Origin: a virus
Taxonomy: Duplodnaviria; Heunggongvirae; Uroviricota; Caudoviricetes
IMG/VR virus record: IMGVR_UViG_651053023_000011
Span: 1-41,897 of that record
DNA length: 41,897 bases
Direction: 5' to 3' (one strand)
Below are positions 27,350 through 28,961 of the stretch, piece by piece. The first letter of the stretch is position 1, and every line of letters starts with the position of its first letter. The notes beneath the pieces are model-generated. The model ran no database searches. It saw only the letters and a list, made by a program, of their open reading frames with translations, and had not been told where the DNA came from. The translations under genes were made by a program, and so were the position numbers.

Positions 27350-27380
27350 GCACAAAAAACCCGCCCGGCGGCGGTTTTAA
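27350..27380. terminator. GC-rich hairpin flanked by A and T runs (bidirectional terminator candidate)
   Basis: AAAAAACCCGCCCGGCGGCGGTTTT. Confidence 0.4.
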
Positions 27381-27480
27381 GCTGTGTGACGTAGTAATCA
27401 CTCTTAACATCATATTTAAATTTTTACGTACGTAAACCTGTACGTATAACTTTATATTATAAAAATGCAACAACTATAAT

Positions 27481-27507
27481 ATTTTAGATATTTTAGATAT
27501 TTTAGAT
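27481..27507. repeat. three perfect tandem copies of ATTTTAGAT upstream of porin gene
   Basis: Direct reading; adjacent TATAAT and TACGTACGTA palindrome in AT-rich porin promoter region. Confidence 0.7.
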
Positions 27508-27686
27508 AAATACTGCATTGGAAATTATCACCAATATTTAACGCCACACATAAATGTGATATTGATCACACTATAAACCCTTAAATAAACCCCATATCTT
27601 GAAATAACCGTACCGATTAGATGTATATTTAAGTTGCAGCGACATTATTTTTTAATAATAGTTCCCAAAAGAACTAAGGATTCATA

Positions 27687-28769
27687 ATGAAAAAATTAAC
27701 AGTGGCAATCTCTGCTGTAGCAGCATCAGTATTGATGGCTATGTCCGCTCAGGCAGCTGAGATTTATAACAAAGACAGCAATAAATTAGATCTGTACGGA
27801 AAAGTTAATGCCGGGCACTACTTCTCCTCTAACGATAAACACGATGGTGACAAAACTTATGCTCGTCTGGGATTCAAAGGTGAAACCCAAATCAATGATC
27901 AACTGACTGGTTTCGGTCAGTGGGAATATGAATTCAAAGGCAACCGTGCTGAATCTCAAGGTTCCTCCGCAGACAAAACTCGTCTTGCATTTGCTGGTCT
28001 GAAATTCGGCGACTACGGCTCCATCGATTATGGTCGTAACTACGGTGTAGCATACGATATCGGTGCATGGACTAACGTTCTGCCAGAATTCGGTGGCGAT
28101 ACCTGGACCCAAACAGATGTATTCATGACTGAACGCACCACAGGTGTTGCAACTTATCGTAACAACGACTTCTTTGGTCTGGTTGAAGGTCTGAATTTTG
28201 CTGCTCAGTATCAGGGTAAAAATGACCACACTGACGTAACTCAAGCTAATGGTGATGGTTTCGGTTTCTCCACTACTTATGAGTATGAAGGATTCGGCGT
28301 AGGTGCAACCTATGCTAAATCTGACCGCACTAATAATAAGGTTATCTACGGTAACAACAGCCTGAATGCATCTGGTCAAAATGCTGAAGTATGGGCAGCT
28401 GGTCTGAAATATGACGCTAACAACATTTACTTGGCCACTACCTATTCTGAAACCCAGAATATGACGGTATTTGCTGATCGCTTCGTCGCTAATAAAGCTC
28501 AGAACGTTGAGGCTGTTGCACAATATCAGTTCGATTTTGGGCTGCGTCCGTCCGTGGCTTACCTGCAATCTAAAGGTAAAGATCTCGGAGTATGGGGCGC
28601 TCAAGACTTAGTTAAATATGTTGATGTAGGCGCAACCTATTACTTCAACAAAAATATGTCCACTTTTGTTGACTACAAAATCAACCTGATTGATAAGAGC
28701 GATTTCACGAAAGCATCTGGCGTTGCTACCGATGATATCGTTGCTGTAGGTATGGTTTACCAGTTCTAA
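27687..28769 (+). CDS. outer membrane general porin (OmpC/NmpC/Lc-like), prophage-encoded
   Basis: 360-aa ORF with AAGGA RBS, signal peptide ending AQA, N-terminal [17 protein letters not shown]-terminal ...YQF. Confidence 0.9.
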
Positions 28770-28775
28770 ATCTTT

Positions 28776-28819
28776 TTATTAAAAAAGATATGTTGTGGGA
28801 GATATTTATCTCCCACAAC
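28776..28819 (-). terminator. terminator candidate (tR-prime-like)
   Basis: 12-bp stem GTTGTGGGAGAT/ATCTCCCACAAC followed on the minus strand by a T-run. Confidence 0.4.
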
Positions 28820-28908
28820 ATGTGGGTGACGCCCTCACGTCACTGCATTAAGAAAGACATTTTTGTCTTTTCTTTTTAACCTTCTGTTATTTATTACCCT
28901 AAACTCTT

Positions 28909-28932
28909 GGGGCGTTTTTGCGCCCCTTTTTT
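28909..28932 (+). terminator. rho-independent terminator downstream of porin gene
   Basis: GGGGCG/CGCCCC stem followed by T6. Confidence 0.5.
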
Positions 28933-28961
28933 ATTCAATTTTGCCAGCAAACGTTAGTCAA
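28930..28961 (-). promoter_or_regulatory. candidate late promoter (pR-prime-like) downstream of Q
   Basis: TTGACT overlapping Q stop, 17-nt spacer, TTGAAT; followed by hairpin and terminator. Confidence 0.3.

Follow-up and report, generated by a model that had tools for sequence, protein, structure and literature searches.

Prophage porins of the Lc/NmpC type have been on record since the 1970s-80s, and a surface porin can act as receptor for phages, as antigen and as entry route for antibiotics. We compared the locus described here with lc of phage PA-2 (GenBank J02580) and with nmpC of prophage DLP12 in E. coli K-12, and its porin with OmpD of Salmonella enterica, which belongs to the same subfamily of general porins and is chromosomal rather than prophage-borne. 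For the neighboring phage control region, the reference systems were the Stx phages 933W and VT1-Sakai. A different kind of precedent comes from variable short tandem repeats upstream of outer-membrane protein genes: the 7-bp repeats upstream of hmw1A/hmw2A in H. influenzae and the TAAA repeats upstream of nadA in N. meningitidis affect expression, and repeat-tuned surface variation is a well known strategy in Haemophilus and Neisseria. To our knowledge, repeat-modulated surface-gene promoters are uncommon in E. coli, and surface variation tuned by repeats has rarely been documented in this species or on a prophage.

The window (the whole 41.9-kb stretch of DNA that was analyzed) carries an intact porin gene of this family.

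27687-28769, plus strand: porin open reading frame of the Lc/NmpC/OmpD type, 360 aa, intact
27687-27755, plus strand: porin signal peptide, 23 aa, with the same sequence as the annotated Lc signal peptide

The protein matches Pfam Porin_1 (PF00267) over its full length (residues 29-360 on model positions 1-337 of 337, E=2.6e-149), and its nearest solved structures in the PDB are OmpK37, OmpC and PhoE (E~1e-131). Reading of the sequence also found the loop 3 motif PEFGGD and a C-terminus ending in VYQF, with an aromatic last residue. From the strong full-length similarity to solved porins, we infer a trimeric 16-strand beta-barrel diffusion channel. Amino acid identity is 89% with PA-2 Lc and 78% with OmpD (P0067), and the closest database clusters are E. 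coli Lc/NmpC/OmpC at 88-94%. The original prediction had named an intact OmpC/NmpC/Lc-type porin and suggested alignment to these proteins, and the alignments bear that identification out. The K-12 nmpC gene, in contrast, is interrupted by IS5 close to the 3' end. Matches to the Lc/NmpC family occur in about half of the complete E. coli genomes (2633 of 5426). The gene is thus an ordinary member of an already known prophage family, and by itself it adds little. The differences between porin alleles are concentrated in a few segments.

The surroundings of the gene consist of phage regulatory and late functions, all on the opposite strand, and of terminator-like sites.

28958-29341, minus strand: antiterminator Q, Q21/933W family (Pfam PF06530, E=2.8e-54)
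28909-28936, plus strand: intrinsic terminator on the porin strand, GGGGCGTTTTTGCGCCCC followed by TTTTTT (terminator scan)
28790-28821, minus strand: perfect 15-bp hairpin followed by a T-run (repeat and terminator scans)
27409-27436, minus strand: late promoter pR', with -10 TATGAT at 27414-27409 and -35 TTTACG at 27436-27431
27375-27408, minus strand: transcribed pR' leader GTTAAGAGTGATTACTACGTCACACAGCTTAAAA, which by homology holds the pause/Q-utilisation region
27351-27374, minus strand: tR', intrinsic terminator of the short pR' transcript, stem CCGCCGCCGGGCGG (27374-27361) plus a T-run
23623-24331, minus strand: holins, downstream
23090-23626, minus strand: M15 endolysin, downstream

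The family assignment of Q follows bioRxiv 10.1101/651190, and the protein distantly matches the Q21 structures 6JNX and 6P18 (E=1.2e-8). Window positions 27340-27445 (block 27351-27436, minus strand) align with the annotated pR'/tR' of 933W (Y10775.2) and VT1-Sakai (AP000400.1), whose Q belongs to the same Pfam family. The promoter scan scored pR' at 9 of 12 consensus positions with a 16-bp spacer, the terminator matches the annotated tR' of both phages, and the VT1-Sakai record has a putative Q-utilisation site at the leader position. At loci with a PF06530-type Q, the leader is nearly invariant whatever the cargo, and every sister locus has tR' ahead of a 65-aa late gene; where Q is of the lambda type, a lambda-like pR' occupies the equivalent position.

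These alignments change the reading of one of the two palindromes that had been proposed as porin-regulatory elements. Both are present in the upstream region, but TACGTACGTA is the -35/spacer of pR' and not a porin element; it is conserved wherever the pR' of a PF06530-type Q occurs, with or without a porin. The palindrome TTACGTACGTAA at 27424-27435 lies inside pR' and is unique in the window even when one mismatch is allowed. One stretch that the old PA-2 annotation calls a "CRP site" really belongs to pR' and its leader, as does the palindrome proposed earlier for this locus.

The porin cassette therefore occupies the interval from the Q stop codon to pR', divergent from pR' and outside the late transcription unit. 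The prediction that the gene lies between Q and the lysis genes on the opposite strand was correct and is refined here, in that the cassette does not lie inside the late operon. The synteny proposed with DLP12 nmpC and PA-2 lc was recovered next to Q: the porin adjoins Q and faces away from the late and lysis genes here, as it does in PA-2, DLP12 (where the order is quuD-nmpC-essD), PhiR70_1, mEp332 and Perceval. In 933W and VT1-Sakai the porin is absent and Q directly adjoins pR'; the Q stop codon of 933W abuts the pR' -35, whereas a 1.5 kb porin cassette separates the two here. Look-ups of the neighboring 65-aa and 85-aa proteins showed the Q-pR' junction of sister loci filled by other types of cargo and returned no further porin loci. 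The late regions also differ, being of the S-R-Rz type in PA-2 and here consisting of the 65-aa gene, a methylase, tRNAs and TerB, followed by the holins.

The GC content is about 43% in the porin gene, 23-27% in its upstream region and about 50% in the flanks. Sequence scans placed promoter-like and terminator-like sites on the two sides of the gene, and the homologous K-12 promoter is active. Taken with the absence of the cassette from 933W and VT1-Sakai, these features support the earlier suggestion of a moron, as judged from its anatomy. The hairpin at 28790-28821 probably ends the early (Q) transcript, which runs toward the porin gene. No Rfam family was found in 27300-29000.

Upstream of the porin start codon, two promoter-like sites and one palindromic site were located.

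27599-27629, plus strand: proximal porin promoter, with -35 TTGAAA at 27599-27604, a 19-bp spacer and -10 TATATT at 27624-27629
27630-27686, plus strand: porin 5' leader, with the Shine-Dalgarno AAGGA at 27676-27680
27555-27570, no strand assigned: consensus CRP site TGTGATATTGATCACA
27451-27480, plus strand: putative distal sigma-70-like site TTTATA-N18-TATAAT, with TTTATA at 27451-27456 and TATAAT at 27475-27480

Conservation across the Lc/NmpC family begins at 27596, and the block from ATCTTGAAATAA to the ATG (27596-27686), which contains the core promoter, leader and RBS, was conserved in all eight aligned loci. For K-12 PnmpC, 5' RACE placed the start at a "G", deletion of -199 to -1 abolished the promoter, and the promoter was characterized as a sigma-70 promoter activated by CRP, with OmpR, IHF and MprA reported as repressors (PMC11677980). 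Carried over from K-12 by homology, the porin start would be a G near 27633-27639. The palindrome GTGATATTGATCAC, which had been taken as a sign of dedicated regulation, instead reads as a perfect consensus site for CRP, a global regulator of the host; it is the only TGTGA-N6-TCACA in the 41.9 kb, where 0.07 would be expected. Its center at 27562.5 lies about 73-74 bp upstream of the start expected by homology (27636), and class I CRP sites occupy positions such as -61.5, -71.5 and -82.5. In the PA-2 lc record, a CRP site is annotated at the corresponding position.

PA-2 shares the conserved proximal promoter, leader and RBS block and, at the other end of the upstream region, the pR' block. 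What separates pR' from the core promoter is unrelated sequence, however, about 275 bp long in PA-2 against about 150 bp here, and the CRP site of PA-2 is a half-site (GAGAT...TCACA) where the window has the perfect consensus. The DLP12 upstream region is of the PA-2 type. The TATAAT noted in the original prediction is present as the -10 of the distal site, which matched 10 of 12 consensus positions in the promoter scan, stands back to back with pR' and abuts the first repeat unit with its -10. The distal site is retained at all array-bearing loci (as CATAAT in L035) and absent from the PA-2/DLP12 type. If it is active, then the array would be transcribed. By consensus score, the distal TTTATA-N18-TATAAT ranks above the proximal promoter with its long 19-bp spacer.

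The feature that sets this locus apart from K-12 nmpC and PA-2 lc, neither of which carries it, is a short tandem array.

27479-27508, no strand assigned: tandem repeat of the 9-bp unit ATATTTTAG, 3.3 copies with 100% matches (TRF, period 9; a repeat search agrees)

The three perfect 9-bp repeats described by the original prediction were thus recovered upstream of the gene, flanked by CAACAACTATA and ATAAATACTGCATTG. They occupy the AT-rich spacer that separates pR' from the divergent porin promoter; the expected starts are about 77 bp (pR') and about 128 bp (porin) away. Short repeats are favored by AT-rich DNA and most sister loci are draft assemblies, so a chance feature or an assembly artefact was considered. 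Against this, when the 312-bp intergenic region (26% GC) was shuffled 5000 times with dinucleotides preserved, no perfect tandem tract reached 30 nt (longest, 25); the array stands in the same place in at least 11 independent assemblies, including the finished SE11 genome; and arrays of up to 108 bp fit inside single short reads. This explanation is hardly credible.

Across homologous loci, we observed copy numbers of 3, 4, 7, 9, 10, 12 and 16.8. Loci that share the same porin allele and show no mismatches in 471 bp of flank nevertheless have unequal copies (9 vs 4, 10 vs 12 and 3 vs 4). The window differs from its relative L031 by two substitutions in 7384 bp and one repeat unit, and another pair (L033 and L039) by one substitution in 4785 bp and two repeat units. 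By these sequence comparisons, the array appears to be a hypermutable VNTR, in which copies change faster than point substitutions accumulate. Variant units are clustered in runs, with five consecutive ATGTTTTAG in SE11 and six GTATTTTAG in L035, which points to an origin by slippage. The array does not seem to be wildly unstable, since the contigs examined with the exact porin of the window have three copies each, save L031 with four.

The array is present in at least four porin alleles, and its persistence across them could reflect selection rather than a neutral by-product. It is absent upstream of DLP12/PA-2-type loci, among them P0002 and P0004, and of 025542-type loci, and most Lc/NmpC promoters are without it. 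When one genome of each species was searched for the unit in three copies, every hit fell in an unrelated taxon (Helicobacter, Gardnerella, Streptococcus and others). The array flank patterns matched only the SE11 prophage and chance sequences in IMG/VR, and in JGI metagenomes only chance matches within a recombinase gene. Within the searchable papers, which do not include the classical PA-2/nmpC literature, we found neither the repeat unit in this context nor a link between nmpC and a tandem repeat. Nor did these papers describe the variation in copy number (3 to ~17) of this porin-promoter repeat among near-identical prophages.

The absence of the array from DLP12/PA-2- and 025542-type promoters, together with its unfixed copy number, is at odds with the original prediction that the repeats imply dedicated regulation. 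A related proposal is that the array is a set of operators for a specific DNA-binding protein, either a dedicated one or OmpR, IHF or Lrp. The repression of K-12 PnmpC attributed to OmpR, IHF and MprA fits this, and the minus-strand unit AAAATATCTA matches the OmpR half-site GAAACATCTA at 8 of 10 positions, the SE11 variant AAAACATCTA at 9 of 10; TTAGATG also occurs at 27616-27622 within the conserved core promoter. However, the period is 9 bp where OmpR half-sites have 10 bp, the main unit has no counterpart of their conserved C, and matches with two mismatches are expected at 26% GC. Most family members lack the array and its copy number is not conserved, and scans gave no convincing match for IHF, Lrp or Fis. 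We regard an operator array as very unlikely. Across the intergenic region, the scan for IHF, Fis, Lrp, H-NS and OmpR motifs gave only weak matches of the kind expected at 26% GC, which we did not count as evidence.

Alternatively, the array could serve the phage as AT-rich upstream DNA or an insulator for pR', either setting its basal activity or keeping it independent of the CRP-driven porin promoter. The array begins about 77 bp upstream of the expected pR' start, nearer to it than to the porin promoter, and because the two promoters are divergent, coupling through supercoiling or H-NS is conceivable. Yet pR' works without an array in 933W-type phages, sister loci with other cargo also lack it, and a position of -77 and beyond falls outside the range of UP elements, which normally act at -40 to -60. 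Such a phage-side role seems highly improbable.

A third proposal, on the model of hmw1A/hmw2A and nadA, is a contingency locus in which slippage reversibly tunes or switches the porin, so that lysogens vary in receptors, antigenicity and permeability. The hypervariable copy number between near-identical loci would suit such a role, as would the location of the array within the regulatory spacer of a surface-protein gene, its maintenance at high purity in several alleles, and allelic porin differences that cluster as they would in a surface protein under diversifying selection. The precedents differ in that their effect on expression is established, while an effect of the present array is hypothetical and the array stands further from the core promoter: it is at least ~128 bp upstream of the expected start, neither between -35 and -10 nor within coding sequence. 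The uniform three copies of the exact-allele contigs other than L031 also speak against this proposal, and no helical phase is favored among the observed copy numbers (9n modulo 10.5). For a transcript that would start from the distal TATAAT, the ribosome-binding site was predicted to be equally accessible at 1-17 copies, with an unpaired probability of 0.51-0.52, and masking of this site by the array was rejected. We consider a contingency locus possible though unlikely, and we are equally doubtful of the more specific claim that the array is a functional hypermutable tuner of the porin dose in lysogens, and possibly of pR' leakiness as well.

Because the unit length is a multiple of three, a role as part of a small ORF was also considered; no ORF of at least 40 aa overlaps the array in the window. 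In SE11, an annotated 77-aa ORF has its start within IS5. This role was rejected.

The explanation that we prefer, and hold to be probable, is that the locus is a lysogenic-conversion cassette with an Lc/NmpC porin in the Q-pR' slot, driven by CRP, and that the array is a slippage repeat rather than a conserved operator. The setting would be a lambdoid prophage of E. coli whose Q is of the Q21/933W type, with the cassette divergent from pR' and bounded by putative terminators at both ends. As reported for nmpC, the lysogen would make the porin from a promoter activated by CRP-cAMP and would not need the late genes to do so. Replication slippage is our best estimate for the origin of the array. 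Any effect that the array does have would presumably be a graded change in promoter strength and not an on/off switch, and it might act through the quantity of AT-rich DNA available to H-NS or through the spacing of the divergent promoters.

The placement of pR' on the far side of the cassette changes how the upstream region of nmpC and lc is read in K-12 and related phages. Sister prophages also show the Q-pR' junction to be a slot with varied accessory or defense-like cargo. The array is, at the least, a candidate strain-typing marker for this prophage lineage. It also suggests a hypothesis that is cheap to pursue, namely that a prophage may adjust how much of a surface porin is made. If the array does act as a tuner, it would give populations of E. 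coli lysogens a heritable but reversible variety in their outer membranes.

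The window, a lambdoid E. coli prophage, has a DnaB-type helicase gene on its minus strand, followed by the late antiterminator gene Q (PF06530), a 65-aa gene, an N6/N4 methylase, tRNA-Thr and tRNA-Gly, the TerB and DUF3927 genes, two holins with an M15 endolysin, and an HNH gene with terminase.

Features of the prophage discussed in the text
25517-25670, minus strand: tRNA-Gly(tcc) and tRNA-Thr(tgt), in the leader of the late operon, flanked by the methylase and TerB genes
27436-27351, minus strand: late promoter pR' and terminator tR'
27479-27508: 9-bp tandem repeat array
27687-28769, plus strand: porin ORF, 360 aa
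27786-28604, minus strand: 272-aa ORF antisense within the porin gene
28790-28821: perfect 15-bp inverted repeat directly after the porin stop codon
33801-33989, minus strand: C4 antisense RNA (Rfam, 83 bits) and adjoining IsrK Hfq-binding RNA (59 bits), within the early/immunity region

One sister locus, L002, carries four tRNAs (Gly, Thr, Arg, and Ile) at the corresponding place. Together, C4 and IsrK suggest that the lambdoid backbone contains a P1/P7-like antisense module for immunity or antirepressor control.

The original prediction of an intact OmpC/NmpC/Lc-type porin gene was borne out. Pfam Porin_1 matched over the whole model (E = 2.6e-149), solved OmpK37, OmpC, and PhoE structures matched at ~1e-131, and the sequence has a signal peptide, a PEFGGD motif, and a C-terminal YQF. 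Identity was 93% to the E. coli SE11 prophage porin, 89% to Lc of phage PA-2 (with identical signal peptides), and 78% to Salmonella OmpD. The predicted synteny with nmpC of DLP12 and lc of PA-2 also held: in PA-2, DLP12 (K-12 nmpC), PhiR70_1, mEp332, and Perceval, the porin adjoins Q and points away from the lysis genes. Both the porin type and this synteny are already known. Related DNA is present in 38 phage records and, among 5426 complete E. coli genomes, in 2633; the exact protein occurs in ~99 blocks of a public collection and, among the matches listed, all are E. coli assemblies.

Across eight porin alleles, differences are concentrated at residues 181-187, 216-237, 263-267, 299-312, and 335-348, and two indel sites are among them. 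Judged from OmpF/OmpC, these segments should be surface loops, and diversifying selection on a phage receptor or antigen would be expected to produce such clustering. The antisense ORF is taken to reflect porin codon composition and not to be a gene. The inverted repeat after the porin has a T-run on the minus strand only, and this hairpin probably terminates the early transcript leaving Q, which converges on the porin gene.

The cassette was placed correctly between Q and the lysis genes on the opposite strand, and its position can now be refined. The minus-strand block consists of TTTACG-N16-TATGAT, a ~35-nt leader, and a GC-rich hairpin with a T-run, and it aligns with the annotated late promoter and terminator of 933W (Y10775.2) and VT1-Sakai (AP000400.1). 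Most of the 278 phage records that contain it are from Stx phages, and all sister loci with a PF06530 Q have it ahead of their first late gene, regardless of the cargo in between. Loci with a lambda-type Q have TAAATT...AACGATGGG at the corresponding position, which we take to be a lambda-like pR'. The Q stop codon of 933W directly adjoins the pR' -35, whereas 1.5 kb separates Q from pR' in the window; the porin cassette thus occupies a slot between the two (27437-28957), divergent from pR' and outside the late transcription unit. Sister prophages with matching flanks (L021-L029, L043-L052) carry varied cargo at this junction: a porin, a TfpB-like gene, an AAA_15 pair, GmrSD with HEPN, a T5orf172/MUG113 gene, a three-gene cassette (350 + 130 + 221 aa), or nothing. 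In some of them, Shiga toxin (RIP) genes follow at a distance downstream of the slot.

Aligning eight porin upstream regions revealed two conserved blocks separated by sequences of unrelated types. Block A is the pR'/tR' block. Block B runs from 27596 (ATCTTGAAATAA...) to the ATG and contains TTGAAA, a 19-bp spacer, TATATT (AATATT in PA-2 and K-12), a leader, and AAGGA. The K-12 counterpart, PnmpC, is reported to be a typical sigma-70 promoter whose start was mapped to a G by 5' RACE; in the same study, deleting -199 to -1 abolished its activity, and it is described as activated by CRP and repressed by OmpR, IHF, and MprA (PMC11677980). By homology, the window porin transcript would start at a G near 27633-27639. 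The TATAAT noted in the original prediction is present at 27475-27480, where it belongs to a distal TTTATA-N18-TATAAT site that matches at 10/12 positions and is arranged back to back with pR'.

Two palindromes had been proposed as dedicated porin regulation. Both exist, TTACGTACGTAA at 27424-27435 and TGTGATATTGATCACA at 27555-27570, but neither fits that role. Given the placement of pR', the first (TACGTACGTA) is its -35/spacer and not a porin control element. The second is a perfect CRP consensus, with no other in 41.9 kb (0.07 expected), centred ~73 bp upstream of the homology-inferred porin start. As it also corresponds by homology to the PA-2 record's second CRP site, we read it as a site for a global host regulator. 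The same placement puts the first "CRP binding site" of the 1986 PA-2 record (J02580, 1067-1087; window 27386-27407) in the conserved, transcribed pR' leader, where late-promoter or Q function, rather than CRP, probably accounts for its conservation.

The predicted perfect repeats upstream of the porin were confirmed by Tandem Repeats Finder (9-bp period, 3.3 copies, 100% matches). No perfect tandem tract of this length arose in 5000 dinucleotide-preserving shuffles of the 312-bp upstream intergenic region (26.6% GC). Ten more loci came from a look-up with the Q protein of the window; the array carriers among them are listed below with L020 and L058.

Copy number of the 9-bp repeat in homologous loci
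Window, L017-L020: 3 copies; exact window porin allele
L031: 4 copies; window porin allele
L037: 4 copies
L058: 4 copies; one unit impure
L030: 7 copies
L035: 7 copies; six GTATTTTAG units
L036: 9 copies
L033: 10 copies
L039: 12 copies
SE11 (L001/L034): 16.8 copies; five ATGTTTTAG units; IS5-family insertion

Even where porin alleles are identical and 471 bp of flank show 0 mismatches, loci differ in copy number (9 vs 4, 10 vs 12, 3 vs 4). Compared over their full retrieved length, the window and L031 loci are separated by one unit and 2 substitutions in 7384 bp, and L033 and L039 by two units and 1 substitution in 4785 bp. Variant units are grouped in runs which, together with copy-number change between near-identical loci, is the signature of replication slippage. 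The array is therefore, with strong support, a variable-number tandem repeat (VNTR) whose copy number changes faster than point substitutions accumulate. Each unit holds TTAG, a potential IS5 target (YTAR). In SE11, an IS5-family element (ISKpn26-like; L001 3190-4384) lies between pR' and the porin promoter, in the array's first TTAG with a 4-bp TTAG duplication.

The array is absent from the DLP12/PA-2-type upstream region of most genomes and from a second type in 13 complete genomes; the window-type spacer occurs in only one of 5426, SE11. Porin alleles and upstream types reassort.

The array contributes 27 to ~150 bp of 78%-AT DNA between two divergent promoters. Its copy numbers showed no preferred helical phase, and motif scans of the intergenic region gave no convincing regulator motif. 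An effect on ribosome-binding-site access at the RNA level was tested and discarded as an explanation. Our best estimate is that the array arose by slippage and that its effect on the porin promoter or pR', if any, is no more than graded and may run, for example, through H-NS. We consider it unlikely that this rapidly changing array is a true contingency locus. Haemophilus hmw and Neisseria nadA have repeat-modulated promoters and are the nearest repeat analogues; their class is defined by effects on expression, and the window array is not placed in it.

The closest relatives, lc of PA-2 and nmpC of DLP12, share protein family, synteny, and core promoter with the window, which differs in spacer type, perfect CRP site, and VNTR. 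The searchable literature, which excludes older subscription titles, does not mention the 9-bp repeat. The repeat findings go beyond existing knowledge: the kind of element is known, and its regulatory region is a new variant. What is useful here is the VNTR, together with the position assigned to pR' and the revised interpretation of the palindromes. PA-2 lysogens are classically protected against porin-dependent phages. Here, the repressed prophage would express its porin under CRP-cAMP control, independent of late transcription, and this would alter the outer-membrane porin make-up of the lysogen.
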